From the NCBI GenBank assembly GCA_035944555.1, contig DASZAY010000028.1, forward strand, positions 2,158-66,157: DNA of 64,000 bases, read 5' to 3'. Source of the DNA: Thermomicrobiales bacterium (lineage in GTDB: Bacteria; Chloroflexota; Chloroflexia; Thermomicrobiales; UBA6265). Shown here piece after piece: positions 22,219 to 63,248 of the stretch. The first letter of the stretch is position 1; each line of letters starts with the position of its first letter. A program made the position numbers and the translations under genes. The notes beneath the pieces are model-generated. The model saw only the letters and a program-made list of their open reading frames with translations. It was not told the origin of the DNA and did no database searches.

Positions 22219-22421
22219 CGGTGATCGGTTCCGTCCTGCCAGGAGCGACTCGCCGGTGGGCGGATCCCCGGGGATGATTCCCCGGGCTCATCAGGAAACG
22301 CTGAAGCTTTCGTCTGTCTTCGCGGCGTCCATCTTGGCCCTACCCGCCAGGGATGCCGTGTTGCGGCACCCTCTCCAGTCCCCGGGGGCTTCAACCCTGG
22401 GGACGCCCAGGCATTCACCCC

Positions 22422-23828
<1,407 letters not shown>

Positions 23829-31069: not shown

Positions 31070-31073
31070 CCGG

Positions 31074-32443: not shown

Positions 32444-35005
32444 CTACAACCGGCGGCGCATGGCCGACAGCGGTGAGCCGGGAATCGGGGCGCCTTCCCC
32501 GCCCCGGTCCAGGTGGTACGGGACGCTGGTCACGACGATGCCGGGCTTGAACAGCAGCGCCGCCTTGATCCGTAGGCCGGTCTGGTTGTGGAGGATGTGC
32601 TCCCACCAGTGCCGGGCGATGAACTCGGGCAGGATCACGGTCAGGGTGTCGCCGGGCCGCTGCCGGTCGATCTCGTCGATGTAGCTGAGCAGCGGCCCGA
32701 CCAGCGACCGGTAGGGTGACTCGATGATGACCAGGGGCACACCGATGTCCAGCGCGTCCCACGCCTGCTGTACGCCGTCGATATCGTCCTCGTCGACGGC
32801 GATGTGGACGGCGGTGACGTTGGACGACATCGACCGGGCGTAGGCCAGCGTCTGCTGGGCGACCCGGTTCACCCCGGCGATCGGGACGAGGACCGTGTGG
32901 TGAATGGCTGACGGGTCCAGCGGCGTCGGCGTCGCCAGCTCGCGGGTTGCCATCTCGTAGTGCCGGTGGATCCCGCGGAGCGTCAGGATCAGCAACGGGA
33001 TCAGCAGCATCACCACCCAGGCGCCATGGGCAAACTTGGTCACCGCGACGATTAGCGCCACGACAGCCGTCGCCGTCGCCCCGAACCCGTTGAGGATCCG
33101 CCCCGTCCGCCAGCCGGGTTCCCGCCGCCGTTGCCAGCGGACGACCATGCCTAGCTGCGAGATCGTGAACGAGGTGAACACGCCCAGTGCGTAGAGCGGG
33201 ATCAGCCGCTCCGTCTCGCCGCCGAAGATCGCCAGCACCGCCGAGGACAGCACGCCGAGCGTGACGATCCCGGTCGTGAAGGCCAGGCGGTCGCCCCGGA
33301 AGGTAAATTGCCGGGGCATGTAGCGGTCGCGGGCGAGGAAGTACGACAGGCGGGGGAAATCGGAGTAGGCCGTGTTGGCGGCGAGGACGAGGATCGCCAT
33401 CGTCGAGAACTGGATGAACAGCGCCGGGACCGGCCCCCAGCCCTCGAAGATCCGCTGCGCGACCTGGTAGACGACCGTCTCGTAGCCGGCGGAGTCCTGG
33501 TCCAGCGGCAGGGTGCCGTACTGGTGGGCCAGCCACGTGATCCCGCCGAACATCACGGCGAGCGTGACGATCATGATTGTCAGCGTCGTCCGGGCGTTGG
33601 ACCACTCCGGCTTCCGGAAGGCCGGCACCCCGTCGGAGATGGCTTCGACACCGGTCAGGGCCGTGCACCCGGCGCTGAAGGCGCGCAGCGCGACGAAGAG
33701 TGTCAGCGTGCCGGCCGCCGCCACGTCCTCGGTCGGGACGACCTCCGGCTCCAGCACGGGAAAACCGGCCAGTGCGTTGCGGGTGATCCCGACGACCAGC
33801 ATCAGCGCGATCCCGCCGAGGAACAGAAAGGTCGGGACGGCGAAGATCGTCCCGGATTCCCGGATACCCCGCAGGTTCAGGATCGTGACCAGCGTCACGA
33901 ATCCGATCCCGACGAGGACGCGGTGCTCGTTCAGCCCGTTGAACACCGATGACAGCGCCGCGACGGCCGCCGCGACCGAGACGGCGACGGTCAGGATGTA
34001 GTCGACCAGCAGCGCGCCGCCCGCGGTCAGCGCCGGGATCTCTCCGAGGTTGTCCTTGGCGACGATGTACGAGCCGCCGCCGTTGGGATACGCCTTGATG
34101 GTCTGGCGGTAGGAGACGCCGACGATCAGGAGCAGCACGATGATCGCGAGACCGATCGGCAGGCTGACGCTCAGCGCCGCGACGCCACCGGCGATCAGCA
34201 GCACCCGGAGGATTTCTTCCGTGGCGTAGGCGACCGACGACAGGGCGTCCGACGACAGGACCGCCAGGGCCTTGGGCTTGGACAGCCGCTCATGCGACGC
34301 CATCTCGGTCGAGAGCGGCGAACCGATCAGCAGCCGCTTCACCCTGCCCGCCGTCCGCCCAACGGGACCGCGCTCGGCCAGCGACTGCTGCTTCGCAATC
34401 AGCCGGCCGGGACCGGCGAAGGCGAAATCGTCGGTCCGGGGCCGGACGATCCGGACGTACCGGTCGCCCGGGTGCTGTCCCTGGAGCGCCTGGCGGCCCG
34501 AGAGATTGGGATGAATCGGCGCGTCGACGGGGCGTGGCGGGCGGTGACCGCGCGTTGGGTGAACCCGGTCGGCGGGCTCGACTGCGTTCATCTCCAGGAC
34601 ACTCGCAGGATTCATGTCGGTGCCGGGGAAGGTATTGCGGTCAGGCGCCGGGCCTGGCCGGGGTGGCGCGAACTGCGAAGAAGCGGGAGGCTCGGGATCG
34701 GCCCGGATCGTCGGGATCGTGCTGGTCGGTCCGATGGCGATCGTCTCGTTAGGGGTCGGCAGGTCCGCCGGGCTGGAAAAGGGAAGTGGCTCGTCGCGGG
34801 AGACCGGTGAGGTGTAATGACCGCCGGGAGGGCGTGGCGGACCCGCCTTCCGGACCTTGGGTCGGATCCGGCGTTCGGCGCCCTCGCCGACCGCGCCGGG
34901 TTTGCTTGTGGCAGGCTCGTCGGTGTCGCCCGCTGGCGCTTCGGGAGACGCGGATCCGTCCAGGGCGTCTCCCTGGGCCGGAACGTCGTTGCGTCGGTTG
35001 TCCAC
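32444..35005 (-). CDS. APC-superfamily transporter (amino acid permease-like) with C-terminal cytoplasmic domain and long disordered N-terminus
   Basis: The transporter core is SKPKALAVLSSDALSSVAYATEEIL...NGGGSYIVAKDNLG with about 12 TM segments. The C-terminal region is HTVLVPIAGVNRVAQQTLAYARS...VIIESPYR. I prefer GTG 35005 as the start (AGGAG 10 nt upstream), with ATG 34615 as an alternative. The track start 35482 overlaps the divergent cupin gene and is rejected. Confidence 0.75.
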   Translation of the reverse strand: MDNRRNDVPAQGDALDGSASPEAPAGDTDEPATSKPGAVGEGAERRIRPKVRKAGPPRPPGGHYTSPVSRDEPLPFSSPADLPTPNETIAIGPTSTIPTIRADPEPPASSQFAPPRPGPAPDRNTFPGTDMNPASVLEMNAVEPADRVHPTRGHRPPRPVDAPIHPNLSGRQALQGQHPGDRYVRIVRPRTDDFAFAGPGRLIAKQQSLAERGPVGRTAGRVKRLLIGSPLSTEMASHERLSKPKALAVLSSDALSSVAYATEEILRVLLIAGGVAALSVSLPIGLAIIVLLLIVGVSYRQTIKAYPNGGGSYIVAKDNLGEIPALTAGGALLVDYILTVAVSVAAAVAALSSVFNGLNEHRVLVGIGFVTLVTILNLRGIRESGTIFAVPTFLFLGGIALMLVVGITRNALAGFPVLEPEVVPTEDVAAAGTLTLFVALRAFSAGCTALTGVEAISDGVPAFRKPEWSNARTTLTIMIVTLAVMFGGITWLAHQYGTLPLDQDSAGYETVVYQVAQRIFEGWGPVPALFIQFSTMAILVLAANTAYSDFPRLSYFLARDRYMPRQFTFRGDRLAFTTGIVTLGVLSSAVLAIFGGETERLIPLYALGVFTSFTISQLGMVVRWQRRREPGWRTGRILNGFGATATAVVALIVAVTKFAHGAWVVMLLIPLLILTLRGIHRHYEMATRELATPTPLDPSAIHHTVLVPIAGVNRVAQQTLAYARSMSSNVTAVHIAVDEDDIDGVQQAWDALDIGVPLVIIESPYRSLVGPLLSYIDEIDRQRPGDTLTVILPEFIARHWWEHILHNQTGLRIKAALLFKPGIVVTSVPYHLDRGGEGAPIPGSPLSAMRRRL

Positions 35006-35176
35006 TGGTGAAGAACTCCTGGATGCCCTGCCTGGGCAGATCAACGACTGGCGGACGCGGAACGATCCCGCCAGCGTGAGCCGCGATAGGATACGTCCGC
35101 ATTGGCCAGACGGGTACCTCGGGCATCGACCGCCCTTATAGCGGTCCCCGTCGTGCCGGATACCGTCGTCTACACC

Positions 35177-35581
35177 ATGACAGGAGCCAGCGACATGACC
35201 GATACGTCGACGTCCGCCGTCCCGTTCCCACCCGCCTGGAGCAACGTCGCCGACCTGACCCGGTTCGAAGCCGTCCCGGGCATCTGGATGCAGTCGTTCG
35301 CCGGCGGGGCGCTGATGGCGAACTGGGTGACGATCGAGCCGGGCGCGGAGGTGCCATCCCATATCCACCCGCACGAGCAAATGGGCGTAATGATGCAGGG
35401 CGAGATGACGCTGACCATCGCCGACGAGACCCGCACCATCGGCCCTGGCGACGTCTACGCCATCCCTCCCCATGTCCCCCACGGCGCCACCTCGACGGAT
35501 GGCTGCCTGGTGCTGGATATCTTCACGCCGGTTCGGGAGGACTACATGGAGAAGGCTCGCGTGGCGGCTGCCCGGGGCTGA
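35177..35581 (+). CDS. Cupin-domain protein
   Basis: GAEVPSHIHPHEQMGVMMQGEMTL...GDVYAIPPHVPHG carries the two cupin motifs. The start is ATG 35177 or ATG 35195. Confidence 0.8.
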   Translation: MTGASDMTDTSTSAVPFPPAWSNVADLTRFEAVPGIWMQSFAGGALMANWVTIEPGAEVPSHIHPHEQMGVMMQGEMTLTIADETRTIGPGDVYAIPPHVPHGATSTDGCLVLDIFTPVREDYMEKARVAAARG

Positions 35582-35769: not shown

Positions 35770-38013
35770 ATGTCGATCACCGATCTGGTGTTGTCGCTGA
35801 TCGTGCTGGTCCCCATGGGCGCGGTCGGCGTCGCCTTGCTGTGGCGTCTGCGACTCGGGCTGGACCCGCTGGAGCAGGTCGCCTACGGCGTCCCCTTCGG
35901 GTGGGTTGCCTCCTCACTCCTGCTGCTCGGGATCTGCATCCTCCAGGGCAGGATGTCCGCCGCCGTCAATGTGGTCTTCCTCGTCTTTCTGCTCGCGCTG
36001 ACGTTCTCGATCCTGATCGGCGACCGCCGCACGGTGCGGTGGCTGGAAGGTCTTACCTCGGTACCGGTACGTGACGCTGCGTTGGTCCCCGCTGAGGAGG
36101 TCGGTCCTGTCATGGCAGTTGGGCCGGCCCATTCCCGACCGACCGCCGGCCTGATCTCTACGCTAGGCCGCCTTACCCCTGACCGGCTGATCGGGCTGCT
36201 GACACTGCCTCGGATCAGTTGGCTTCCAACCATCGTGTTCGGGGCAATGCTGATCGTCTGGGCGCAATTCTGGTCCAACGTCGTCCAGTACACCCCCGAC
36301 CAGATGACATTGTCCTCGACGCATTTCATCTCCGACTGGCCGATGCATATCGGCGATCTCGCGACCATGGTCTACGGGGACAACTTTCCGGTCGAGGCAC
36401 CGCGAGTGGCCGGAGAGACCTATGGCTATCACTATCTCGCGACCGTCACTGCTGCGGCGATTTCGGCCCTCGGGGTTCTGCCCGGGTATGCCCTTGAGAT
36501 CCATAGTGGACTGGGCATGGCGTTCTGCTTGTTCGCGCTCTATGCCTTTGGCCGGCGTATTTTCCGGCGAACCGGAACGGCCGTCCTCGGCACACTGATC
36601 TTCTTCTTCGGTGGCAGCTTCGCCTGGCTGTTGACCGTTCGCCAATTCAACGCGACCGGCGACCTCTGGGATACTCTCCGCAATCATGCTTGGGAATTCG
36701 GTCCGCACAATGCCGACGGGCTGTTCGCCTGGAATCAGGTCACCAGCTATCCCTTCCTCGCCCAGCGTGCCTTTATCTATGGCATTCCGCTCTTTCTGCT
36801 GATAATGACGCTGCTCTGGATTGGTCTACGTCAGAACAGGCTTCGACCGTTCATCGTCGCCGGCCTCGTAACGGGAACACTGCCCTACAGTAATGGCTCA
36901 ACTGCTCTGATTCTCGTGCTAGTCCTGCCGTTCCTCGCGTTGCTCTTTCCGGTGCGACCGTTTGGCCGCACGCCCCTCAGTTGGATACGGGCCTATCCCA
37001 TCACAACATGGGTATCGTATGTCGTTGTCGCTGCGGCGCTGGCGCTTCCCCAGATCCTGATCCAGCAGAGTGGCGGTGCAGCCGGGCTGGAGATTCGATG
37101 GCTACCGGGATGGAATCTGAACACCCCGAACGGACCTGAGCCTTGGTGGTGGTACGCAATCAAGAACTTTGGCTTCCTGCTGATCTTCATCCCTCTAGGC
37201 TTCCTGATCCGGGGAGCATTGTCCTCGTCGTCGTGGCGTTTGCTTCTGGCAATCATGCCGGTTTTCCCGATGACCCAGCTCATCGCGTTCCAGCCTCTTG
37301 CGGGCGACAATGCCAAGCTCGTGATGCTCTGGTACCTGGCTGGTGCGATGGTCGCCGCGGCTGGCATCAATGCCATCTGGTCCCGGGCGCGGACGGCAGT
37401 GCCTCGGGCCTTCCTCTCGATCGTCGTAACCGCCATGCTGTTAACCGGCGTCCTGATTCATGTCGAGCTGATCGCCCAGGACAACCCGTTCCAGATCGCG
37501 AATCGAGAGGAGTTGGCGTTGGGCGACGAGATTCGGGAGGTAATTCCACCTGATGCTCTCGTCGCGACCAATCAGCGGGTCAACAACCCGATCCTGATGC
37601 TTGGTGGTCGCCGTATTCTGGTCGGCGCGCCGATCCATGTCTGGACTCATGGTTATGACGCCCGGGAAGAAGAGGACGCGCTCCGGACTATCATGCGTTA
37701 CGGGCCAGACGCCGCAGACGAGATTGCACGGTATGGTGTTGATTACGTTGCCATAGCACAGGGAGAGATTGATGATCTCAACGCAGATCGGGATGCATAC
37801 ATCGATCACTACCCAGTGGTGCTCGACGACGGGGTCTACATGATCTTCGCTGTCAGTCCGGCGGCGATCGATCTGGCCGTGGCGAACGGTGCCACCCTCC
37901 CCACTCCGCCATCCAGCGATCCGACCCCAGTACCGTTCGCCTCGGTTTCTGTCGCCGGGGCAACGCCAACCGCCAGCGTGGCGTCAGGAGCGACCCGACC
38001 ACCTCGCACCTGA
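35770..38013 (+). CDS. Very large polytopic membrane protein, paralog A (unassigned family; possibly GT-C-like), Pro/Thr-rich C-terminal tail
   Basis: About 747 aa with many hydrophobic helices. The conserved loop is SDWPMHIGDLATMVYGDNFPVEAPRVAGETYGYHYL, and later comes QRAFIYGIPLFLLIMTLL. Homology to the next gene is clear. GC is visibly lower (about 58-60 % in two hand-counted lines). Confidence 0.8.
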   Translation: MSITDLVLSLIVLVPMGAVGVALLWRLRLGLDPLEQVAYGVPFGWVASSLLLLGICILQGRMSAAVNVVFLVFLLALTFSILIGDRRTVRWLEGLTSVPVRDAALVPAEEVGPVMAVGPAHSRPTAGLISTLGRLTPDRLIGLLTLPRISWLPTIVFGAMLIVWAQFWSNVVQYTPDQMTLSSTHFISDWPMHIGDLATMVYGDNFPVEAPRVAGETYGYHYLATVTAAAISALGVLPGYALEIHSGLGMAFCLFALYAFGRRIFRRTGTAVLGTLIFFFGGSFAWLLTVRQFNATGDLWDTLRNHAWEFGPHNADGLFAWNQVTSYPFLAQRAFIYGIPLFLLIMTLLWIGLRQNRLRPFIVAGLVTGTLPYSNGSTALILVLVLPFLALLFPVRPFGRTPLSWIRAYPITTWVSYVVVAAALALPQILIQQSGGAAGLEIRWLPGWNLNTPNGPEPWWWYAIKNFGFLLIFIPLGFLIRGALSSSSWRLLLAIMPVFPMTQLIAFQPLAGDNAKLVMLWYLAGAMVAAAGINAIWSRARTAVPRAFLSIVVTAMLLTGVLIHVELIAQDNPFQIANREELALGDEIREVIPPDALVATNQRVNNPILMLGGRRILVGAPIHVWTHGYDAREEEDALRTIMRYGPDAADEIARYGVDYVAIAQGEIDDLNADRDAYIDHYPVVLDDGVYMIFAVSPAAIDLAVANGATLPTPPSSDPTPVPFASVSVAGATPTASVASGATRPPRT

Positions 38014-38087
38014 ACCTCTTTCCTCCCTCCTTCGTCCGGGTCAGCACGATCCGATCAATCTTGACTCGACCCGTGGAGCCCTGCCCC

Positions 38088-40616
38088 ATGCCCGAAGTCG
38101 TCGTCTCGCTGTTCCTGCTTGCCGCGCTGGGTTTGTCTGGCTTCGTTGCGCTGGCCCGCGCCCGGCTGGGCCTGACCCGGCTGGAGCTGGTCGCCTACGG
38201 CTTCCCGGTCGGGATGATCACCTGGTCGCTCGTCGCATTGGGGATCGCCTGCCTCCTTGGACAGCTCAGCCTGGCGCTGATTCTCGGGCTCTGCATGGCG
38301 TCGCTGGCGACGGCGATCGTGCTCTACGTCTCCGGCACTGGGCCGGACGGACCCTGGCCCGGTGGTATCGGACTGCAGGATCGATTCCTGCCCCGGCCTT
38401 CCGGTCGCGTCGGGTTCGTCCATGGGCCGTCGATCGCGCCGACGATGGCGCGGGACGACGAGACGGATCTGGGACTCTGGCAGGGGATCCGCCGGCTGGT
38501 CGGCTGGACCTGGTTCTGGCCGGTCGTGGTCGTCGGTGCCTTCTTCATTCGCTGGGTGTTCCTCTGGGGCGGGATGTTCGACCTCCGGGAGGACGGCCTG
38601 TTCCCCGGCCAGATCAACGTCTGGGGCGACTGGCCGCAGCACGTCGGCGACGCCGCGTCGTTCATCTACGGCAACAACTTCCCGCCCGAGCACCCCCGGA
38701 TGGCCGGCGTCCCCTACGCCTACCATTACCTTTCGTCGCTGACCGGCGCGATGTTCATCCGCTTCGGCATGACGCCGTACGACGCGCTCGCGCTGCACTC
38801 GTTCGTGCTGTCGGCGTTCATCGCGCTCGGGGTTCTTGCCTTCGCGCTCCGGCTGCTGCGGGACGCCCGGACGGCGGCGCTGGCCGTGCTGCTGTTCCTG
38901 CTCGGCGGCGGGTTCGGCTGGGTGCTGATCGCCCAGCTCGGCAACGAGAACGGAGACATTCTCGGGACGATCTGGAACCAGCCCTGGAACATCTATCCTC
39001 AGAAGGACAACGGCTTCTGGTGGGAGAACTTCTACCTGTCCAATATCGAGCCCCAGCGCTCGACGCTCTACGGTATTCCGCTCTCCCTCCTGATCCTGAC
39101 CCTGCTCTACCAGGCCGTCCAGCGCTTCCAGCCGCGCCACTTCGTCGCGGCCGGCGTCGTGATCGGGCTGATGCCGTTCTCCCACCTCGGCGCGCTTCCG
39201 GCGCTCGCCATCGTGATCGCCATGGTCGCGCTGCTGTTCCCTAGCGGGCGGCTCGGCGGGCCGATCGGCCAGTGGTACCCGGCCCGGAAGTGGATCGCCT
39301 TCGGCGTGATCGCCGCCGGGCTGGCCGTGCCGCAGCTGATCCTCCAGCAGGCCGGGCAGCCGGCCGTGACTGGTGGCGTCGCCTTCCACTGGGGCTGGCT
39401 CAAGGGCGAGAACGAGCCGATCTGGTGGTTCTGGCTGAAGAACCTCGGGTGGTTCGCGCCGCTGCTCCTGATCGGCCTCGCGCTGCCGCGGATGTTCGGC
39501 TCACACGCCTACCGCTTCCTGCTCGCCTTCATGCCGATCTTCCTCGTCTGCAACGTCCTGAAACTCCAGATCGACCCGCTGGACAACATCAAGACGCTGC
39601 TCTACTGGCACCTCGCCGTCTGCCTGATCGCCGCCGCCGTGATCGCCCGGGGCTGGCGGCTGGACCGCACCATCGCCGCCCGCGTCCTGATCCTCCTGGT
39701 CGTCTCGTCGATGTTCTTCTCCGGGTTGCTCGTCAACCTGCAGCAGGCGCGCGGGCTGGACACCTACCGCTGGGAATCCGCGACCGATCTGGAGATCGCC
39801 GAGCTGGTCCGGGAACAGACCCTGCCGCGCGGCGTGTTCGCGACGGCGCCACGGCTGGACCACCCGATCTCCACACTGACCGGACGGCCGGTCGTGATGA
39901 GCTTCCAGGGCTGGCTGTTCACCCGGGGCTTCGACACGGCGCCCCGTCGCGAGGCGCTGGAAGACATCTACTCGCTGGAACCCAATACCGAGGCGCTGTT
40001 CGACGAATATGGCATCGACTACGTCGTGATCGGCTGGACGGAGCGCGAGGACTACGAGCCCGACCTCGAGGATTGGCGGGAGCGCTACCCCATCGCGATC
40101 GAGACGGACGACTACCTGATCTTCGCGGTCAGCGACCCGGCCATCCGGCGGATGGAGCAGGAGCGGGAGCGGCAGGCGCTGCTTGCCGGTGACTCACCCA
40201 GCCAGCGCCCCTCAGATGTCCCGACCCGGGGCCCGCGCCAGACCCCGACCGCTGAGGAGTCGTACCGGCCGACGATCATCTACCCGGCTGGCCAGACCCC
40301 CGGCGCTGGCACCCCGGTGGGTGGAACACCCATTACCGGCTCGCCGATGGCTGGCACGCCCATCGCCGGTACTCCTCCGGTGGCAGCGCCGTCGTCCGGC
40401 GTGACGATCATCTACCCGTCCAGCCGGGGGACACCCGCGGCTGCCAGCGCCGGAACACCGGCCAGCGGCACACCGGGGACCGGGACGCCGGCCAGCGGCA
40501 TACCGGGGACCGGGACGCCGGCAGCGACGCCGATCGCCGCGCAGACGCCGACGGCGGTCGCGACCCAGGCACCAACCGTCGAGCCGACTCCGCGCCCGAC
40601 CCGGCCACCGCGGTAG
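38088..40616 (+). CDS. Very large polytopic membrane protein, paralog B, with long Gly/Thr/Pro-rich C-terminal tail
   Basis: About 842 aa. The loop GDWPQHVGDAASFIYGNNFPPEHPRMAGVPYAYHYL and the segment QRSTLYGIPLSLLILTLL align with paralog A. The start is placed at ATG 38088, with GGAG 9 nt upstream. Confidence 0.8.
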   Translation: MPEVVVSLFLLAALGLSGFVALARARLGLTRLELVAYGFPVGMITWSLVALGIACLLGQLSLALILGLCMASLATAIVLYVSGTGPDGPWPGGIGLQDRFLPRPSGRVGFVHGPSIAPTMARDDETDLGLWQGIRRLVGWTWFWPVVVVGAFFIRWVFLWGGMFDLREDGLFPGQINVWGDWPQHVGDAASFIYGNNFPPEHPRMAGVPYAYHYLSSLTGAMFIRFGMTPYDALALHSFVLSAFIALGVLAFALRLLRDARTAALAVLLFLLGGGFGWVLIAQLGNENGDILGTIWNQPWNIYPQKDNGFWWENFYLSNIEPQRSTLYGIPLSLLILTLLYQAVQRFQPRHFVAAGVVIGLMPFSHLGALPALAIVIAMVALLFPSGRLGGPIGQWYPARKWIAFGVIAAGLAVPQLILQQAGQPAVTGGVAFHWGWLKGENEPIWWFWLKNLGWFAPLLLIGLALPRMFGSHAYRFLLAFMPIFLVCNVLKLQIDPLDNIKTLLYWHLAVCLIAAAVIARGWRLDRTIAARVLILLVVSSMFFSGLLVNLQQARGLDTYRWESATDLEIAELVREQTLPRGVFATAPRLDHPISTLTGRPVVMSFQGWLFTRGFDTAPRREALEDIYSLEPNTEALFDEYGIDYVVIGWTEREDYEPDLEDWRERYPIAIETDDYLIFAVSDPAIRRMEQERERQALLAGDSPSQRPSDVPTRGPRQTPTAEESYRPTIIYPAGQTPGAGTPVGGTPITGSPMAGTPIAGTPPVAAPSSGVTIIYPSSRGTPAAASAGTPASGTPGTGTPASGIPGTGTPAATPIAAQTPTAVATQAPTVEPTPRPTRPPR
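40458..40517 (+). repeat. Tandem 30-nt duplication inside the tail of paralog B
   Basis: CCGGCCAGCGGCACACCGGGGACCGGGACG (40458..40487) is repeated at 40488..40517 with one C>T difference. It encodes PASGTPGTGT / PASGIPGTGT. Confidence 0.9.
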
Positions 40617-40715
40617 TCCTTCATCCCTGCTCCGTGAACAGGACGACCCCGGGCCCGCATGCCGCGATGCCTGCCTTGGTCCGGGGTCATCTGTCGTCCG
40701 GCCGAGGTCCTTCCC

Positions 40716-41453
40716 CTATCCCCGCCTGCGTTCCCGGATCCGGTCCAGTCGCAGGCGCCAGACGAGCAGTGCCGCCTCCAGGACGATGCTGCGGGACAGC
40801 TTGCTGGCCCCGGCGACGCGGTCGGTGAAGGTGATCGGGATTTCAACGACCCGGCCACCGTTGCGGATCACCCGCCACGTCGTCTCGATCTGGAACCCGT
40901 AGCCGTCGGCGCGGAGGTGCTCCAGGTTCAGCCCTTCCAGCGCCGCGCGCCGGTAGACCTTGTAGCCGCCAGTTAAATCATGGACGGGCAGCCCGAGGAT
41001 CAGGTGGGCGTAGCGGGAGCCGAATCGGCTGAGCAGGCGGCGGTGGAACGGCCAGCCAACCGTCTTCCCGCCGGGGACGTAGCGTGAGCCGAGAACGAGA
41101 TCGGCGTTCGCCGCCGCCTCGACCATCGCCGGCAGCCGGTCGGCCGGGTGGGAGAGGTCGGCGTCCATCGAGACGACGAGATCAGCTCCATGGGCCAGGG
41201 CGTGGCGGAACCCGACGACGTAGGCCGTCCCCAGCCCCTGCTTGCCCGACCGGTGAATGACGTCGATCTGGCCAGGGTGCGCTGTGGCCATCTCATCGGC
41301 GAGTTCACCAGTGCCATCCGGTGACGCATCATCGACCACGATGACCCGGAAGTGATCCCCGAGTGTGAGGACCCGCACCACCGCTTCATGGAGATTGTCC
41401 CGCTCGTTGTAGGTTGGGATGACGACGGTGACAGGGCCGCGGGTTTGGGTCAT
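40716..41453 (-). CDS. Polyprenol-phosphate mannose synthase (GT2, Dpm1/Ppm1-like)
   Basis: VTVVIPTYNERDNL...VIVVDDASPDGTGELA...HRSGKQGLGTAYVVGF...VVSMDADLSHP is the Dpm1/Ppm1 pattern. The start is trimmed to ATG 41453; the track start is 41480. Confidence 0.85.
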   Translation of the reverse strand: MTQTRGPVTVVIPTYNERDNLHEAVVRVLTLGDHFRVIVVDDASPDGTGELADEMATAHPGQIDVIHRSGKQGLGTAYVVGFRHALAHGADLVVSMDADLSHPADRLPAMVEAAANADLVLGSRYVPGGKTVGWPFHRRLLSRFGSRYAHLILGLPVHDLTGGYKVYRRAALEGLNLEHLRADGYGFQIETTWRVIRNGGRVVEIPITFTDRVAGASKLSRSIVLEAALLVWRLRLDRIRERRRG

Positions 41454-41550
41454 GGAGTCTTCCCACATCCTGCCGGACATCCTTGCGAGCGGCCGTCATC
41501 TTCGCGAGCGCAGATTCTGGCATACGGCGGGCGCCCGCTGCAGATAGAGA

Positions 41551-44500
41551 TCATCGGGTTTCGTTCCAGATCACCAGGATCGGCTCACCGAACCGGTTGA
41601 TCCCTTCGCGGACGACATACCCGAGACCCTCGTTGTAGGCAAACGACTCGAACACGATGGGCAGCGAGTCGATGTCTGGAACGCCAACCTCTTCCGGTTC
41701 GGGGCGGGTATTTCGGCCATCATAAAGCCGGTACGGTCCCCACTCGTGGACCCAGTACCGGCCCCCGTCGTAGACCTCCTGATCGAGCGAGTAGTGAACT
41801 GTAGTCGGGTCGACCTGGTCGATGAACAACAGCACGATATAGCCCTGCGCAACGTCGCCAACGTAAATCTCGGCATAGTCGTCCTCGACCGACCGGGCAT
41901 AGGCAAGTGCGTCAAAGATCCCTGAATGGAAGTGCCATTGAACGGCCCGGTCGCGCGGGTAGTCCGCGTAGTAGCTGGTGTACCGGTCCCGGGCCTGGAC
42001 CACGAGTGGCAGCAAGATGGCGGCGACCATCGCGACGGCAACCATCCGGAACGCGATCGAGCGCGTATCCGGCAGGACGAACCGCCGGAGCCCGTCGAAC
42101 AGCCCGACGATCCCGATCGCGACGAGGATGGCGATCAGGGGGTCGATCTGCGCAACCCGGGAGCTGTTCTGGAATTGGGTGATGGCTGCCGGCACCGGAG
42201 CCAGGACGAACGCGGCCAGCAGCACCAGTGTTGGGCGGCGCAGGCGGAACGGCATATCCGGGTCGAACGCCCGAAGGATGGCGACGACCAACCCGATGAT
42301 GAGCAGCGGCGCCAGCCAGGGAAACTCCAGCCCGTACCCGGGCTGGACGTGCGACTGGTCGCCGTCGCCTTGGACAAAGAGGAAGGTCGGCGAGATATAC
42401 GACCAGTACTGATCAACCAGACCGGACAGGGATGCGGCCTCGGTATTGAGGTAGCTCAGATATCGCGATCGATTGGCCGCGGCCGGGCTCAGGAATGAAA
42501 AGGCATAGGTTGGACCGATCGTCAGGGCCAGCGTCACGATTGCCCATGCCAAGGCCCGGAGTGGGACCAGTCGCCAGACCCGGAAGTAGATGACGACGAT
42601 CACCCCGAGGACCAGCGGGACGTAGAGTTTCATCGTCGGGTAGCCGCTGACCAGCAGGGTGACCGATAGGGCGGCCAGAATGAAGGACAGGGTCGTCCGG
42701 ACCCGGAGTGCCCGTAGCGTTAGCCAGAGCATGAGCAGAAACAGCGGTGCGATCGTCGCCGGCGGGATGGCGTAGCGGCTGAGGTGGACCGCCCACGGCG
42801 AGACTGCCAGCAGCCATGCGGCGATGACCGCCGTGCTGGTCCTGTTGGTCAGCTCCCGGGTAGCGAAGAACGCAAGTGGGATGGCGGCGACACCGAGAAG
42901 GGCCGTCGCGATCCGGATGATGCCGATGTCGAGACCGAAGATCCCGACCCACGGCGCAAGATAATAACTGAGGACCGGCGAGACCCAGTCGCCGAACGTC
43001 TCCAACCCAACCCAGGGGAGCGGGTTGCCGTGATGGTCACGGAGCGTGAGCCAAAGCGACCAGGCGTCATAGCCGGCCGATGCCTCATCCTGGTGCATGC
43101 CCGGTGGGTTGGAATCCACCTGCCACAGCCGGAGGGCAGTTCCGACCATGGTGGCCAGGAGGATGATGAGGGAGATCACCGCCGTCCTGCTATCCGGGAA
43201 AGATTGACCGACCTTCGTTCGGAGCCTGACGGTCCCGAGCCGGATCAGCCGCGGGAGATCGGCAATGGTCGCTGGATGGGAGGAAGGGGCCATCCGTGGA
43301 GTAGGCCAGGCCCCGTATTCCGCAATCGTCGGGATGGCTGACGTAGCGACGGTTGGAGTTACCTGACCCCGGGCACGGGTTCTGGCAAGTCGTCCGGATC
43401 TGAGGAGCCGTGCTGCCGGGGTCAAAGCGTCAGTCGACGCGCGGGCACGCCGACGTTGATGGATGACGATGGTGCGGAGTCCGGTCCCGACATTGAGACC
43501 GGAAGCTGCGTCTGTGGTCGCCTTCTGCCTGGACGAGGCAAACACGGGCCATGACAAGAGACTGGTCGGCACGTGCGCCAGCCGGGCCGACCAGAGGTCC
43601 AATGCTGGTACGTGACGGATCGCGAGGCCTAGGAGGAGCACCGTCAGGAAACCGCTGTAATAGGCGCCGCTCGTCCACTTGGCGAGGAATACCAGAGAGA
43701 AACAGACGGCCAGGCCAGCGAGGATGGCCGACCCAAGATCGCTCCGACGCCGGAGTAACAGCCAGAGACCGAGGAGGATCGTCAGCGGAAACTGGATCTT
43801 TCCGATCCATGAATCCATCCGGATGACGAAGTTTGGCGCCTGCGTATTGATCAGGGTCCAGATGTTGAATCCCCAGACATCTCGCGGGACGCCAGCGAGT
43901 GTCAGGCTGTTCACGACCCCGCCAATGTCATCGATCGCGTATGGCGCCATTGCCACCGTGAACAAGCCAGCTGCGATGCCACCGAACAGCAGCCAGCGAC
44001 CTCCCCGCTGGCGCAGTGCCAGCACGATGAACGGAAAGAAGACCAGGGCGAACACCTTGAAAAGGAGTGCCCATCCCATGAACAGAGCGGCGAGGACCAG
44101 CAGCGGTAGTCGCCATCGGTCCGATGTGCGCCGCGCCTCGCTGTAGATCAGCAAGACAACCGCCGTGGTGACCAGCAGCATCAGGCTGACATCGTTGCTG
44201 CCGCTGGCGGCGGTCATCACGGTCTGTTCGGAGACAGCGTAAAGCGTGACAGCAGCCGCCGAACGGAACCAGCCAACGATTGGAACCAGTGCGGCGAACA
44301 GCAACAGGGTAATTACACCAGATACCAGATCGGCATGAAAAATATCGCCGAACAGCTTGAGATGGATCCAGTAGAACGCGGGCTCACCGATGAAATACGG
44401 GAAGTATGTGCTTGGCGGGATAGCTACGTCGTAGAACTGCGAGTACGGGTTCCCGCCCGACGTCATGACGTCGATTCCTGCCCGGGTGACAAGTAGCGTG

Positions 44501-45033
44501 TCGCTCCCCTGGAAGGGAGTGGCGCTCACCCGGAAATAGGTCCCGGTCGCGAGCCCCACGAGGATCGTCATCGGCGCCGCGATGCGGTACCGGCGGAAGC
44601 AGGCAAGCAGGGTCAGGATGCCAAACGCGGCGATCAACCAGGGTTGCGGCGAGATGGCGTTGTAATTCACCCGGTCGAAGAGCGCCGATAACGAGAGCAC
44701 GACGAGCAGAGCAAGACCGAGACTCGTCCCAACGGGAAGTGTTGCGGACAGGAACCACCCGGGATCAGGAGAAGGCACGGCCCTCTGATGTCGAACGACC
44801 CGCCGGCTTCTCCGAAATGAGGCACTCATCCTGGCCGGGATCAATGCTGATTCAGCAGGTGTCGCTGCGACCGGCGAGGATTCAACCATTTGGGCGTCGC
44901 CTTGGGTCACTGGATCCGGCGGATTCGTGGTTTCCACTTCAGAAGGAATCCGATCGGGGCTGGAGGCTTCTTCAACAGGTGAGTCACCTGGCTCATCGCC
45001 GATCCTGCTCGGGGCACGGTGATGGTCCACCAT
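41551..45033 (-). CDS. 1160-aa fusion membrane protein: N-terminal DUF2029/GT87-like mannosyltransferase module + C-terminal ArnT/PMT_2-like (GT39/GT83-type) module + small C-terminal soluble domain
   Basis: ATG 45033 has AGGAG 8 nt upstream. The N-module contains GSDTLLVTRAGIDVMTSGGNPYSQFYD...PPSTYFPYF. A basic linker spans roughly residues 520-610. The C-module contains LRLWQVDSNPPGMHQDEASAGYDAWSL...FGDWVSPVLSYYLAPW. The ORF is continuous with no internal stop. Confidence 0.75.
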   Translation of the reverse strand: MVDHHRAPSRIGDEPGDSPVEEASSPDRIPSEVETTNPPDPVTQGDAQMVESSPVAATPAESALIPARMSASFRRSRRVVRHQRAVPSPDPGWFLSATLPVGTSLGLALLVVLSLSALFDRVNYNAISPQPWLIAAFGILTLLACFRRYRIAAPMTILVGLATGTYFRVSATPFQGSDTLLVTRAGIDVMTSGGNPYSQFYDVAIPPSTYFPYFIGEPAFYWIHLKLFGDIFHADLVSGVITLLLFAALVPIVGWFRSAAAVTLYAVSEQTVMTAASGSNDVSLMLLVTTAVVLLIYSEARRTSDRWRLPLLVLAALFMGWALLFKVFALVFFPFIVLALRQRGGRWLLFGGIAAGLFTVAMAPYAIDDIGGVVNSLTLAGVPRDVWGFNIWTLINTQAPNFVIRMDSWIGKIQFPLTILLGLWLLLRRRSDLGSAILAGLAVCFSLVFLAKWTSGAYYSGFLTVLLLGLAIRHVPALDLWSARLAHVPTSLLSWPVFASSRQKATTDAASGLNVGTGLRTIVIHQRRRARASTDALTPAARLLRSGRLARTRARGQVTPTVATSAIPTIAEYGAWPTPRMAPSSHPATIADLPRLIRLGTVRLRTKVGQSFPDSRTAVISLIILLATMVGTALRLWQVDSNPPGMHQDEASAGYDAWSLWLTLRDHHGNPLPWVGLETFGDWVSPVLSYYLAPWVGIFGLDIGIIRIATALLGVAAIPLAFFATRELTNRTSTAVIAAWLLAVSPWAVHLSRYAIPPATIAPLFLLMLWLTLRALRVRTTLSFILAALSVTLLVSGYPTMKLYVPLVLGVIVVIYFRVWRLVPLRALAWAIVTLALTIGPTYAFSFLSPAAANRSRYLSYLNTEAASLSGLVDQYWSYISPTFLFVQGDGDQSHVQPGYGLEFPWLAPLLIIGLVVAILRAFDPDMPFRLRRPTLVLLAAFVLAPVPAAITQFQNSSRVAQIDPLIAILVAIGIVGLFDGLRRFVLPDTRSIAFRMVAVAMVAAILLPLVVQARDRYTSYYADYPRDRAVQWHFHSGIFDALAYARSVEDDYAEIYVGDVAQGYIVLLFIDQVDPTTVHYSLDQEVYDGGRYWVHEWGPYRLYDGRNTRPEPEEVGVPDIDSLPIVFESFAYNEGLGYVVREGINRFGEPILVIWNETR

Positions 45034-45131
45034 GACTGGATCTCCTGGGTCGGCGTGCGAACGCGCACCACGTCCGACACCGAAAAGTTCGGTTGCCGGG
45101 CGCGAAATGGATCCGGGTTAGCAGGGAATGA

Positions 45132-48100
45132 TCAGCGCACGGTCCAGCCAGGCAGCCAGGTCCGGAGGTCGAGGCCCTGCTGAGTGAGCTGGGTGGCGGC
45201 GAGGATCGGGAACAGGAAGGCGAAGACCAGCACCGCCAGCACCGCGTACGTGATGGCGCCGTTGCGCAGGCTCAGCACCGACCGCTTCTGCAGCGCACCC
45301 GCCCCGATCGCAATCGCGACCAGCCCGAACAGCGCCACCGGCAGCCCGTAGAGCGCGATCGGCACATAGTCGTCCGGCACGACCTTGTCGTTGGGCAGTG
45401 GGTACTGGACGCCGATGATCAGCAGCGCGTTGATCAGCACGCCGACTCCGACCAGCGCCAGCGGAATCCGGTAGCGCTGCAGGAAGGTGCGGCCGGCCAG
45501 CGGCAGTTCCCGCACCCGCCAGCCGTACTCGACCAGCGTCGCGATCGCGAGGATCCCGAACGGCACCATCGGCAGGAAGTGGTAGGCGTAGGCACCGCGC
45601 GGCGAAGCCGACCAGATCAGCCACTGGCCGAAGAATCCGATCAGCAGCACCAGGGCCGCGATCCAGTGGCGGCGATAGTCGCGCAGCCACAGCCAGATCA
45701 CCGCGATCAGCGCCGGGATCATCGACCAGGCGATGAATGGGTTGACCTGGTTGAACACGTAGCCGCGTGTGTCCCCCCCGACAGGACCGTCCTGCGTCCC
45801 GAACCAGACCGGGAGCATCGCCAGCGGCCACTGCCACCAGAGCGAGTAGTAACTGTGCGTGTGCCCGACCACGCCGACGGTGTGGTAGTAGAGCATCTGC
45901 CGCTGCAGCTCGACGAAGTCGGCGAACGAGAAGCCGAACAGGAACATCGGGACGTAGGAGACGAAGTAGACCGCTAGCGGGAGCAGGATCAGGTTCAGCG
46001 GCACGAAGACGAGGTGGTTCTTCAGATCGCTCCACGCCCGGGGTTCCGGGTCGCGGTCGAGCGGGCTCGCCCGGATCCAGATCCACGCCAGCCGCAGCAG
46101 CGCCACACCGACCATGAACACGATCGGGTACAGGCCGTTCCACTTGGTCGCGAAGGCCGCGCCCATCGCCAGGCCCAGGAGTAGTGTGCTGATCCCGACC
46201 TCGCGCGTACTCGCCCCGACCGGAACCCGCATGTAGCGCAGGAACGCCCAGAGCGCCGCCATGATGAAGACGACGATATGGATGTCGACCATCGACGTCC
46301 GGGACTGGACGAAGTACAGCCCATCGACCAGCAGCAGCCCGGCGGCGACGGCGCCGACCACCCAGCGCCCGGTCAGGGCCATGCCTAGCCGGTAGACGAT
46401 GAACAGCCCGAGCGCGCCGAAGATCCAGCTCGTGAACCGCCAGCCGAAGGGGTTGTCCCCGAACAGCCAGATCCCGATGGCGATGATCTCCTTGCCGAGC
46501 GGCGGGTGCGTCCACTCGTAGGAGAAGTTCTCGTAGGTCCGCTCGCCGTTGTCGCCGGGGTACCAGGTGTAGAGTCCGGCCTCGCCGTCGTCGCCGGCGT
46601 TCTGGAACGGGTCGAAGGTGTTCTCGTTGCCGTCGACGTACTGGGCCGCCGTGAAGGCGTGGTAGACCTCGTCATAGATGTAGTCGTCCGGGATGTCGAT
46701 CCGGATCAGGTAGAACACCGCGCCGATGACCGCGATCGCCAGCGGCAGGTACCAGACCTGCCAGGCGGGCCGGGCGGCCGCTTCAGCGTCCGCGTGGACG
46801 AAATCGCGGACGGAGGCGTCGCCCTCCTCTCCTTCGACGAGCGGATCACGCTTCGGGGCTGGGCGCGCGCCGCGAACCGGGGCACTGGCGGGGACCGAGC
46901 CGTCCGGGTACATCCAGCCCGGTACCCACCGGGGCGCCGAGAAGGTGTTGCCCCGGACCACGAGTGCGTAGCCGATGGCGATGGTCGCCGCGAGCAGGAC
47001 GATGTTCAGTACCGCCATCAGCTCGAGGAAGCTGGACGAGCCGATGATGCTGATCTGGGGCGTCTCGGACGGGAAGTACAGCGAGTAGACCCAGTACAGG
47101 GTCAGCGTGAACGATGCCGTGATCCCGGCGTACAGCCAGATGAACCGGGGCAGCAGCGCGACGAGCAGCACCGTCAGCACCATCGTCGGGAACAGGTAGC
47201 GCTCGTGCCCGCGGGTCGGGAGCATGTACGCCGCAAACGATGCCGCCGTCATGCCCCAGATCAGCGCCTGGTAGCCGAACCGCCGCCATGCCTGGAGGGT
47301 CAGCCAGGCGATCCCGGTGATGGCGAGAACGGCCAGGATCGTTCCGGTCGCCTGGTAGGACAACCCGATCGCGGTCTGCCGGGTGTCGTCCGCCCAGTTC
47401 TCGGAGAACACCCCCCAGATCGTCGGGGCGTTCAGGGTGGTGTTCTGGTAGACGTTCAGGGCGTAGTCGATCCGGTCCCAGATCGTGAAGGCCCCCATGC
47501 CAGGGAACAGGCCGATGTTGAACGGCAGGCAGACGACGAGGAAGACCGCCAGCGACAGGCCGGCGCCGATCCCGAGCCGGGTCAGCGAGCGGTTGAGCGA
47601 CTCGCGCGGACCATCCTCCCGGACCCAGCGGGCCAGCGCCGGGACGTGTGGCGCGATGTAGACGAGCAGGAAGGCCAGGCCGAGGAACGCCCCGAACACC
47701 GCGAGCTGCGGCTTGATCAGGCAGGCGTAGACGATCGCCGGGATGGCGTACTCGGGCCGGCCGCGGATGAACAGGTAGATCGCGCCGACCCCGGCCATCG
47801 CCGACAGGCTGTCCCACTGCGTCCAGACCGAGCCGATGAAGATCGCGGCCGGGTTGAACACGTAGAGCGCGACCGCGACTAGCGCCGCCGTGGCCGTCGA
47901 GAGCCGGCGTCCGATCAGGAAGATCAGCAGCGCGATCACGGCATCGGCGATGGCCGGCACGAGCTTGAGCATGAACAGGAACGGGATCGGGGCAGCCGTG
48001 GTGTCGGTCGTGATCGGCGCAAACCAGCTGTAGACGTGGCCGATCAGCCAGAGGATCCAGAGGTCGCCGGGGAGGTGGTCAGTCAGGCCGCCCGACGTAT

Positions 48101-48482
48101 AGAAGGAACGGGGCGACTCATCGACGAGGCGCTGGGCCCACGACGTCATCGTGTTGGTGTCGATGGTGAAATTCCCGAGGGGGAACAGCGCCAGCCGGAG
48201 GACGAAGCCGATCCCGATCAGGACCAGCGCCGTCCGCAGCGCGTCCCGCCCGAGCGCCCGGTTTGCGAAACCGGCGCCGGTCGCCCGGAGGTTGGCCGCC
48301 CGGTTGCCGCCGCCCCCGCGCATCCCTCCACGTCCGGGAGCCGCGACGTTCCCCGCCGGGGTCGCCATCGCGACGGTGTCCGCGCCGGGGACGGTGCCGT
48401 GTCGCTCCACGGCGGCGGCACGCGGGACAGCGGACGGGCGGGTGCGCGCATCCGGGCGCGTCGGGCGTGATCTGGAAGCCAT
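45132..48482 (-). CDS. ~1116-aa fusion membrane protein: N-terminal Gpi18/DUF2029-like GT-C module + C-terminal protein O-mannosyltransferase (Pmt, GT39) module
   Basis: The Pmt part contains YIYDEVYHAFTAAQY (DE motif), EWTHPPLGKEIIAIG and VQSRTSMVDI. The N-module contains FTIDTNTMTSWAQRLVDESPRSFYTSGGLTDHLPGDLW. The start is trimmed to ATG 48482, with GAGGA 9 nt upstream; the track start is 48719. Confidence 0.78.
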   Translation of the reverse strand: MASRSRPTRPDARTRPSAVPRAAAVERHGTVPGADTVAMATPAGNVAAPGRGGMRGGGGNRAANLRATGAGFANRALGRDALRTALVLIGIGFVLRLALFPLGNFTIDTNTMTSWAQRLVDESPRSFYTSGGLTDHLPGDLWILWLIGHVYSWFAPITTDTTAAPIPFLFMLKLVPAIADAVIALLIFLIGRRLSTATAALVAVALYVFNPAAIFIGSVWTQWDSLSAMAGVGAIYLFIRGRPEYAIPAIVYACLIKPQLAVFGAFLGLAFLLVYIAPHVPALARWVREDGPRESLNRSLTRLGIGAGLSLAVFLVVCLPFNIGLFPGMGAFTIWDRIDYALNVYQNTTLNAPTIWGVFSENWADDTRQTAIGLSYQATGTILAVLAITGIAWLTLQAWRRFGYQALIWGMTAASFAAYMLPTRGHERYLFPTMVLTVLLVALLPRFIWLYAGITASFTLTLYWVYSLYFPSETPQISIIGSSSFLELMAVLNIVLLAATIAIGYALVVRGNTFSAPRWVPGWMYPDGSVPASAPVRGARPAPKRDPLVEGEEGDASVRDFVHADAEAAARPAWQVWYLPLAIAVIGAVFYLIRIDIPDDYIYDEVYHAFTAAQYVDGNENTFDPFQNAGDDGEAGLYTWYPGDNGERTYENFSYEWTHPPLGKEIIAIGIWLFGDNPFGWRFTSWIFGALGLFIVYRLGMALTGRWVVGAVAAGLLLVDGLYFVQSRTSMVDIHIVVFIMAALWAFLRYMRVPVGASTREVGISTLLLGLAMGAAFATKWNGLYPIVFMVGVALLRLAWIWIRASPLDRDPEPRAWSDLKNHLVFVPLNLILLPLAVYFVSYVPMFLFGFSFADFVELQRQMLYYHTVGVVGHTHSYYSLWWQWPLAMLPVWFGTQDGPVGGDTRGYVFNQVNPFIAWSMIPALIAVIWLWLRDYRRHWIAALVLLIGFFGQWLIWSASPRGAYAYHFLPMVPFGILAIATLVEYGWRVRELPLAGRTFLQRYRIPLALVGVGVLINALLIIGVQYPLPNDKVVPDDYVPIALYGLPVALFGLVAIAIGAGALQKRSVLSLRNGAITYAVLAVLVFAFLFPILAATQLTQQGLDLRTWLPGWTVR

Positions 48483-51793: not shown

Positions 51794-51911
51794 GGGAATT
51801 CCTCCGCGATGACCGGCGCCCGATCGCGCCGCGCGGACAGTGTCCCACCGGAAAACGGCGAACGTGTCACGACACCGGAACGGAACCGGGGCAGCACCAC
51901 CCTCTCGCCGG

Positions 51912-63163: not shown

Positions 63164-63248
63164 CCCTGTTCTCTCCCTGGGACGGCTTCAACAGCCGGTC
63201 GAGACCGGAAAGGTCTCAACGTGTTCCATCTCTTTACGTCGTGACGCA

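Follow-up and report, generated by a model that had tools for sequence, protein, structure and literature searches.

The window analysed here, a stretch of 64 kb (64,000 nt) from a Thermomicrobiales bacterium (Chloroflexota), contains an island of about 13 kb (35770-48482) whose five genes, designated p1 to p5, are best explained, with a probability of roughly 60%, as a chromosomal glycosylation island that draws on a lipid-linked sugar donor and is active on the outer side of the cytoplasmic membrane. The general outline, in which a polyprenyl-phosphate-hexose synthase feeds six modules of the glycosyltransferase (GT) type C at the outer face, is highly probable; the more specific proposal, protein O-mannosylation followed by elongation of the glycan, is about evenly poised. 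The island very likely encodes a machinery, not described before, that coats proteins or glycans of the envelope with sugar. Its components belong to known superfamilies and it is thus not a categorically new system; its most noteworthy features are the p1/p2 family and the fusions of two GT-C modules in one polypeptide. In agreement with the initial annotation of this DNA, which had regarded the arrangement as undescribed, no description of it was found in the literature, nor any of Pmt in Chloroflexota. The genes are located as follows:

35767/35770..38013, plus strand: p1, open reading frame (ORF) of 748/747 aa
38061/38088..40616, plus strand: p2, ORF of 851/842 aa
40716..41453/41480, minus strand: p3, ORF of 245/254 aa, a GT2 protein
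41551..45033, minus strand: p4, ORF of 1160 aa
45132..48482, minus strand: p5, ORF of 1116 aa

The ORFs lie as they had been placed initially, with p1 and p2 converging on a minus-strand string that runs from p5 through p4 to p3; the gaps measure 98 bp (p5/p4), 70-97 bp (p4/p3) and 99 bp (the convergent pair p2/p3). The database gene call gives p4 a GTG start and 1075 aa; the contig collection contained no record for the p4 product (P0001). The ORF of p5 is open up to 48719; the start at 48482 is backed by homologs, whose alignments, as in the tblastn matches in contigs L090 and L093, begin at the first residue of the 1116-aa form. A hydropathy scan indicated hydrophobic segments, some of them overlapping, in p1 (13), p2 (13), p4 (19) and p5 (25), and none in p3, so the five large membrane proteins of the initial annotation are four giant membrane proteins and one soluble GT2 protein.

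The expectation that the large proteins are GT-C enzymes was borne out by profile and structure searches, and all six membrane modules are assigned to this class because the C-terminal half of p5 (p5C) belongs to PMT and that of p4 (p4C) to PMT_2 by Pfam, the N-terminal half of p5 (p5N) is recognised by a family profile, and the N-terminal half of p4 (p4N) and p2 are recognised by structural models. Direct Pfam and NCBIfam scans, even with E-values up to 10, yielded nothing usable for p1, p2, p4N and p5N; phmmer searches against PDB sequences found no match for p1 or p2 and identified, among the island proteins, p3 and p5C only.

The sequence of p3 matches the Pfam Glycos_transf_2 (GT2) model with an E-value of 3.4e-34, and its best solved relative in the phmmer search is the dolichol-phosphate-mannose synthase of P. 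furiosus (PDB code 5mlz, E-value 1.8e-39, residues 16-243), followed by ArnC (1.5e-14) and the GtrB-like sll0501 (6e-6). The segment MDADLSHP contains the DAD metal-binding motif, and the NCBIfam PgfS model gives a weak match (1.1e-9, 37.9 bits at a cutoff of 500). These similarities identify p3 as a putative polyprenyl-phosphate-hexose synthase of the DPM1/Ppm1 type. That the sugar is mannose, as had been annotated, is suggested by the resemblance of this GT2 protein to dolichol-phosphate-mannose synthases, and polyprenyl-phosphate-mannose synthase is the best inference for its function.

Protein p5 consists of a PIG-M-like module fused to a PMT module, and is divided as follows:

45132..46799, minus strand: p5C, GT-C module of the PMT/GT39 family, by Pfam, motifs and a yeast Pmt1 match
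46926..48299, minus strand: p5N, compact GT-C of the "Gpi18-like mannosyltransferase" (PIG-M/ALG6-like) kind, upstream of the Pmt module
48300..48482, minus strand: Arg/Pro-rich N-terminal segment of p5

p5C exceeds the Pfam cutoffs for PMT (PF02366; 59.5 bits, cutoff 22.7), PMT_4TMC (PF16192; 41.9 bits, cutoff 32.4) and PMT_2 (37.9 bits), and phmmer matches it to yeast Pmt1 (6p25, 3.1e-6). DE and HPPLGK motifs are characteristic of the PMT family, and both, reported earlier for p5, are present in the translation of its C-terminal half, as YIYDEVYHA (with the acidic DE in the first external loop) and WTHPPLGKE. To our knowledge, every characterised family member with the PMT and PMT_4TMC domains is a protein O-mannosyltransferase. 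p5C is a member of the PMT/GT39 family and not an equivalog of the actinobacterial Pmt.

Nearly all of the 51 homologs of p5N are stand-alone proteins of about 370-535 aa; several are named "Gpi18-like mannosyltransferase" by JGI, and a few have a Pfam Alg6_Alg8 or GT87 match (GT87 in 1 of 51), while p5N itself has no GT87 match. A profile of this family (A2), searched against PDB sequences, matches GPI mannosyltransferase 1 (23gf_B) with an E-value of 9.8e-7 and ALG6 (6snh) with 0.032. The conserved motifs of the family are DHLPGDLW, WGQWDS, LIKPQ and TRxHERYLFP; D47 and D74-H75-x-P77-x-D79, which are predicted to lie in the first external loops, vary little or not at all. The profile match indicates that p5N is a putative compact GT-C of the PIG-M/Gpi18 type. 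A stand-alone p5N homolog in contig L084 has no glycosylation genes around it. In L087 (4116-9332) and L088 (4029-9245), a stand-alone p5N-like GT-C gene is accompanied by genes for an MptA_B_family GT-C (542 aa) and a 693-aa protein without a Pfam domain, which makes this a further small GT-C cluster in a different lineage.

Protein p4 likewise contains two GT-C modules:

41551..43236, minus strand: p4C, PMT_2-type GT-C, p4 residues ~600-1160, with a C-terminal soluble domain
43237..43518, minus strand: Arg-rich linker between the two GT-C modules, read from the sequence
43519..44793, minus strand: p4N, compact GT-C, p4 residues ~81-505

The linker is presumably cytoplasmic according to the positive-inside rule. 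p4C passes the Pfam PMT_2 (PF13231) cutoff of 26.1 by a small margin (28.1-29.0 bits), and its orthologs (35-43% identical in L003, L005, L085, L048 and L054) and remote homologs also carry the PMT_2 domain. The ArnT/PMT_2-like loop pointed out in the initial annotation corresponds to the acidic loop HQDEASAGYD after the first transmembrane helix of p4C. NCBIfam models gave no match to p4, and the level of the ArnT equivalog was not reached.

A word-indexed homolog search with the whole p4 gave two remote relatives only, so an exhaustive HMMER search was needed for p4N; it revealed a small family with 97 cluster representatives, most of which stand alone and measure 390-430 aa. Among 50 family members, Pfam matches were found to PMT_2 (9), GT87 (4), ALG3 (2) and PIG-M (1). 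A comparison with hhalign clearly related the families of p4N and p5N (probability 96.8%, E-value 2.6e-10); the p4N family profile (A3) matched no PDB sequence. The AlphaFold2 model of p4N has a mean predicted local distance difference test (pLDDT) score of 91.7, and a Foldseek search with it revealed similarity to ArnT (7.7e-5), ALG3 (6.3e-4, template modelling (TM) scores 0.52/0.56) and GPI-MT-I (TM-scores 0.50/0.52), and also to ALG9, PIG-U and, weakly, PimE (9dm5, 1.7e-2); the top 19 matches all have the GT-C fold, and other folds appear only at a probability of 0.1 or less. Family members show no or almost no variation at S97 and D98, which are predicted to lie in the first external loop. 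The model thus points to p4N as a compact GT-C similar to ArnT, ALG3 and PIG-M. The name DUF2029/GT87, given initially to the N-terminal modules, was dropped, the GT87 model (PF09594) giving p4N an E-value of 3.7 and 7.7 bits at a cutoff of 25; "compact GT-C related to PIG-M, ALG3, ArnT and PimE" is a better description.

The remaining two membrane proteins, p1 and p2, previously listed as two further proteins of unknown kind, proved to be paralogs (32% identity over about 710 aa, E-value 1e-102) and, as judged from the p2 model, GT-C proteins themselves. The AlphaFold2 model of p2, built on an alignment of 50 sequences from several phyla (A1, about 31% mean column identity), has a pLDDT of 82.4 and a predicted TM-score of 0.82. 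The Foldseek search with this model found STT3 (7e-8), DPY19 (7zlh, 2.1e-7), AglB, PglB and AftA, all with E-values of 3e-4 or better, and, at a lower level, Pmt4 (5.6e-2) and EmbA-EmbB (0.18); the top 22 matches are all GT-C, unrelated folds appearing only at a probability below 0.1. The best target-normalised TM-score, 0.54, belongs to AftA. In the model, a transmembrane helix (residues 152-170) leads into an external loop containing two short helices (187-203 and 224-233) that bear D190 and H194; such a helix with a two-helix external loop and a conserved acidic residue is a GT-C hallmark. The invariant residues of the family are D190 and H194 (motif WGDWPxH in the first external loop), R333, D508 and K511, and p1 keeps all of them, including the motif SDWPMH. 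The modelling assigns the predicted fold of the p1/p2 family to GT-C_A.

The predicted core of p2 comprises about 700 aa, including a C-terminal extracytoplasmic alpha/beta domain, and is followed by a disordered tail rich in (G/A)TP, with pLDDT below 50 at residues 729-851:

40200..40616, plus strand: C-terminal tail of p2, Pro/Thr/Gly/Ala-rich, ending in RPTRPPR

The tail includes a 30-bp tandem repeat at 40450-40526. The p2 orthologs of the same subclade (P0005, P0007, P0009, P0010 and the one at 9760-12276 of L085) all end in a (G/A)TP-rich disordered tail, with a conserved IIYPS-like element and a basic C-terminus of the RPPR type; distant family members have no tail. The nearest relatives of p2 occur in metagenome-assembled genomes (MAGs) of uncultured Thermomicrobiales (74% and 68% identity), and at least 537 loci of the family are present in GTDB species genomes of six or more phyla, centred on Chloroflexota and Acidobacteriota. 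The culturable Nitrolancea hollandica (L029) also encodes a p2 homolog, with 45% identity.

Two narrower identities of p1 and p2 were considered and rejected. An STT3/AglB/PglB-type oligosaccharyltransferase is not indicated, as neither protein has a Pfam STT3 match or the motif WWD[YWF]G; the conserved WWFWLKN of these proteins sits in an earlier loop and not in the C-terminal domain. The Pfam DPY19 model (PF10034) matches about 100 residues with an E-value of 0.14 and 10.8 bits (cutoff 27.2), and the likeness to DPY19 is at the level of the fold only.

Conceivably, p1 and p2 are not enzymes at all but partners of the PMT-type enzymes, be it as scaffolds derived from GT-C, as substrate adaptors or as substrates, much like PIG-U, a non-catalytic GT-C-fold subunit of GPI transamidase. 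PIG-U, which is not known as a glycosyltransferase, is among the Foldseek matches of the compact module p4N, no sequence profile ties p1 or p2 to any catalytic family, and the Thr/Pro-rich tails of the p2 orthologs resemble substrates. At the same time, D190, H194, R333, D508 and K511, invariant in all 50 sequences, are found in loops and at helix starts, as is usual for GT-C active sites, and a tandem duplicate that diverges rapidly is more to be expected of enzymes diversifying their specificity, so a non-enzymatic role is very unlikely.

The main rival to protein glycosylation is the assembly of a lipid-anchored or wall-linked mannan-type glycopolymer, similar to lipomannan or a secondary cell-wall polymer, where a glycolipid or glycan would be modified by the GT-C modules one after another, and the PMT-type modules would have taken on an acceptor other than protein. 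ArnT, ALG3, ALG9, GPI-MT-I and PimE, to which p4N is structurally closest, use lipid or glycan acceptors, the p5N profile matches PIG-M and ALG6, the p2 model has its best target-normalised TM-score with the arabinosyltransferase AftA, transferases acting on lipid A and on glycans are found among the PMT_2 proteins, and a p5N-like gene adjoins the MptA_B_family gene in L087 and L088. On the other hand, p5C has the full PMT and PMT_4TMC architecture with both motifs, the leading matches of the p2 model (STT3, DPY19, AglB and PglB) take peptide acceptors, and the ORFs scanned across the window include no cytoplasmic priming GT of the PimA/PimB or WecA type, no polymer exporter and no ligase. On balance, this polymer is an unlikely but serious contender with the preferred explanation, a glycosylation island using a lipid-linked donor with exported or membrane proteins as the first acceptors.

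The island is conserved in several related contigs. In L003, which is colinear with the window, the genes TrmE..GlxRS..M19..ANT are followed by p2, GT2, p4 and p5 (identities: GT2 63%, p4N 36%, p4C 43%, fused p5 59-68%). L005 encodes p1, p2, GT2, a single-module p4C and p5. In L085 and L093, the island lies between the same DUF2207 and amino-acid-permease genes as in the window and contains a fused p5 (71-73%), a single-module p4C (39%), GT2 (70%), p2 (76%), two p1-type copies (55%) and, in addition, a p5N paralog that stands alone. Two p4C paralogs are present in L090. Taken together, these loci have a stable core of p5, p3 (GT2) and p2, and a variable part composed of p1, which differs in copy number, and p4N, which is fused, separate, absent or replaced.

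The state of fusion varies too. The two modules of p5 are fused in the window, L003, L013 and L085, and are separate neighbours flanking a p2 homolog in the Dehalococcoidia MAG L042. In L091 and L089, p5, p4N and p4C are adjacent ORFs in separate reading frames; ORFs with signals of both p4N and p4C in the more distant contigs L094-L096 suggest a p4N-p4C fusion there, and a fusion of p4N with PMT_2 also occurs in P0181 and P0179. In the 5x long-read contig L003 (12755-17384), the p4 region extends over several frames, with p4C in two pieces and p4N called as a separate 505-aa protein; these breaks are probably assembly frameshifts, so the fusion state of p4 cannot be told in this contig.

Beyond the close relatives, linkage was counted in 80 species-level loci of the p2 family. 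A PMT or PMT_2 ORF is situated within 10 kb of the p2 homolog in 44 of them and directly adjacent to it in 38; 36 have none. The linkage covers Chloroflexota, Acidobacteriota, Actinomycetota MAGs, Verrucomicrobiota, Gemmatimonadota and Patescibacteria. In Pyrinomonadaceae, the PMT_2 gene follows the p2 homolog on the same strand, and in Actinomycetota MAGs a divergent GT2 gene precedes Pmt and the p2 homolog, which share one strand. Unbiased clustering of the neighbours of p2 homologs revealed only lineage-specific housekeeping synteny (FTCD, DinB, SMC, YchF, MgsA) and no conserved flippase or substrate gene. Repeated fusion of the module types, and their adjacency when unfused, constitute Rosetta-stone evidence that they work together.

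In base composition and rate of divergence the island is uneven. The GC content at third codon positions (GC3) is 0.73 in p1 and 0.76 in p4, compared with 0.84-0.93 in p2, p3 and p5, and p1 and p4 are also below the flanking genes. With the same relatives, p1 shares 44-57% identity and p2 about 76-77%, and p4 36-43% and p5 59-73%; p1 and p4 look like a variable or exchangeable portion of the island. This unevenness also bears on the possibility that the genes are neighbours without a common pathway, each GT-C having a separate target (for instance, Pmt acting on proteins, the PMT_2 protein on a lipid, and p1 and p2 on something unrelated), with the GT2 protein supplying a common donor or serving Pmt only. 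The 36 loci of 80 with no PMT-type neighbour, and the contigs L002 and L004, which keep p1 and p2 without GT2, p4 or p5 nearby, would fit such an arrangement as well. Direct adjacency of the p2 homolog to PMT or PMT_2 in 38 of 80 species from six phyla, the repeated fusion of compact GT-C modules with PMT and PMT_2 modules, and the agreement of L085 with the window in both island content and flanking genes speak for a shared pathway and make separate targets highly improbable.

Several observations weigh against the interpretation as a protein-glycosylating island with a lipid-linked mannose donor. The source organism is uncultured. Neither a flippase nor a GDP-mannose pathway gene was found near the island among the ORFs scanned. 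The sugar specificity of a GT2 enzyme is not readable from its sequence, and no NCBIfam equivalog reaches its cutoff with p3. p5C scores 82 bits with the NCBIfam Pmt equivalog NF058602, far below the cutoff of 800, so its acceptor preference may differ from that of the actinobacterial enzymes. ALG3, PIG-M, PimE and ArnT, the closest structural relatives of the compact modules, act on lipids or lipid-linked glycans and not on proteins. As for p2, the 50-sequence profile A1 matched no PDB chain, and hhalign found no relation between A1 and either A3 (the p4N family) or p5C, so it is the predicted structure that suggests the GT-C assignment, with TM-scores to GT-C structures of 0.33-0.54. Finally, L002/L004, the closest relative by p2 identity (74%), has p1 and p2 and no GT2, p4 or p5 within 10 kb, so p1 and p2 are not strictly dependent on the rest in cis.

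With these reservations, the following pathway can be proposed. On the cytoplasmic face, p3 would load a hexose onto polyprenyl phosphate. The sugar is most likely mannose, taken from GDP-mannose that would be synthesised by enzymes encoded elsewhere in the genome, and a flippase would move the lipid-linked sugar to the outer face. There, the PMT module of p5 would put the first mannose on Ser/Thr residues of exported or membrane proteins, and p5N, p4N (both compact, PIG-M/ALG3-like) and the PMT_2 module p4C might extend or branch the glycan. p1 and p2 would glycosylate acceptors of another class, either proteins or glycans. The diverging and copy-number-variable p1 and p4 may diversify the product of a conserved core formed by p5, p3 and p2. 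We infer which sugar is used, whether the acceptor is protein or glycan, in which order the steps occur and how the linkers are placed relative to the membrane. The (G/A)TP-rich extracytoplasmic tails of the subclade p2 orthologs are plausible acceptors. The wall of Thermomicrobium roseum is dominated by a protein rich in Pro, Gly, Glu and Ala, whose gene has never been identified and for which heavy post-translational modification has been suggested (PMC2615216); more speculatively, the Thermomicrobia wall protein of this composition may be an acceptor as well.

A bolder version of the scheme, which appears rather doubtful at this stage, is that p1 and p2 represent an unrecognised class of bacterial GT-C, partnered by PMT, acting as polyprenyl-phosphate-mannose-dependent protein glycosyltransferases with a new acceptor specificity (e.g., an analogue of Trp C-mannosylation, or a second O- or N-linked step), and that in Thermomicrobiales this class joins the fused p4 and p5 to build a heavily modified, protein-dominated wall.

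Several known systems resemble the island in part. Actinobacterial Ppm1/Pmt protein O-mannosylation (PMC5882110, PMC11727336), present in Mycobacterium, Streptomyces and Corynebacterium, similarly combines a GT2 polyprenyl-phosphate-mannose synthase with a PMT-type GT-C of the GT39 family acting outside the membrane, and Thr/Pro-rich regions are plausible acceptors in both. Unlike that system, the island is located in Chloroflexota, its Pmt module is fused to a PIG-M-like GT-C, and five further GT-C modules are present. We know of no model actinobacterium in which ppm1 and pmt are clustered with p2-like genes. Mycobacterial PimE and MptA/MptB, involved in the synthesis of phosphatidylinositol mannosides, lipomannan and lipoarabinomannan, are compact or mid-size GT-C enzymes that also use polyprenyl-phosphate-mannose at the outer face; unlike them, the island has no PimA/PimB-type steps or phosphatidylinositol-mannoside genes and no Pfam GT87 match, and it does not come from an actinobacterium. 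The Actinomycetota framing of the initial annotation, with its lipomannan analogy, does not suit a Thermomicrobiales lineage.

The streptococcal systems PgfS/PgfM1/PgfM2 and GtrB/PgtC2 employ a GT-A polyprenyl-phosphate-sugar synthase with one or two GT-C enzymes per locus and modify extracytoplasmic Ser/Thr-rich disordered tails of membrane-associated proteins (PMC12041528). They share with the island the logic of a polyprenyl-phosphate-sugar synthase and GT-C in one locus, but their GT-C enzymes belong to the YfhO family and transfer Glc or GalNAc, and they have neither PMT, PIG-M-like or STT3/DPY19-like modules nor fusions. The dolichol-phosphate-mannose set of the eukaryotic endoplasmic reticulum (ER) (DPM1; PMT1-4; DPY19; ALG3/9/12; PIG-M), together with STT3, has a counterpart of each structural class in the island, although the identity at the structural level is 9-17%, the motif WWDYG is lacking, and the island genes are clustered and partly fused.

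Bacterial protein O-mannosylation has been studied almost only in Actinobacteria, and the envelopes of Chloroflexota, especially the protein-rich Thermomicrobia wall, are poorly understood. The p1/p2 proteins constitute a large cross-phylum GT-C family for which no profile model exists and whose genomic partnership with PMT/PMT_2 genes is clear, and the fusion of a compact GT-C to a PMT or PMT_2 module suggests physical coupling of glycan initiation and elongation. The island may serve as a compact bacterial comparison set for the ER dolichol-phosphate-mannose toolkit and bears on the evolution of the latter, and its conserved core with a variable periphery resembles surface-glycan diversity loci.

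Scans of the island for promoters and terminators gave background levels. The genes flanking it have no relation to glycosylation; they encode an M19 dipeptidase, ANT- and APH-like proteins, an amino-acid permease, AzlD, a DUF2207/TPM protein, CopC-CopD and Lon. As had been pointed out initially, none of the ORFs scanned across the window encodes a nucleotide-sugar enzyme, a flippase or an ABC exporter. The permease gene (32444-35482, minus strand) has its AA_permease_2 domain at residues 404-814, preceded by an N-terminal extension of about 400 aa without a Pfam match; orthologs of the long form (842-844 aa) adjoin the island in L002 and L085. On the other side, at 50147-54407 (minus strand), a TPM-phosphatase/DUF2207 membrane protein and an 831-aa CopC-CopD fusion are encoded downstream of the island, and the DUF2207 gene forms the same island boundary in L085. 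A gene pair at 30440-32195 (minus strand) resembles aminoglycoside 2''-adenylyltransferase and APH phosphotransferase genes; an ANT-like gene is also found upstream of the island in L002 and L003, and an APH-like gene in L002. For this pair, a housekeeping function as kinase or nucleotidyltransferase is more probable than one in resistance.

At 17780-23828, the window contains rnpA, yidC, jag (KhpB/R3H), a pfkB-like gene and mnmE, followed by nhaA and GlxRS. The gene set rnpA-yidC-jag-mnmE usually adjoins the chromosomal origin, and the block is colinear with related Thermomicrobiales-type contigs. Rfam and tRNA scans revealed a single tRNA-Cys, distant from the island. An ORF of 476 aa at 9712-11142 (minus strand) has coding-like GC3 and no Pfam match. 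The 783-aa protein encoded at 463-2814 (minus strand) contains prealbumin-like repeats of the SpaA/SdrD-B type; it is likely a surface protein and possibly a substrate of glycosylation. Near the other end of the window, a 1140-aa polypeptide (59765-63187, minus strand) unites a CheB methylesterase, a CheR methyltransferase, PAS domains and a histidine kinase, and it is adjoined by a second CheB-methylesterase ORF (63249-63998, minus strand), which is cut at the window end.

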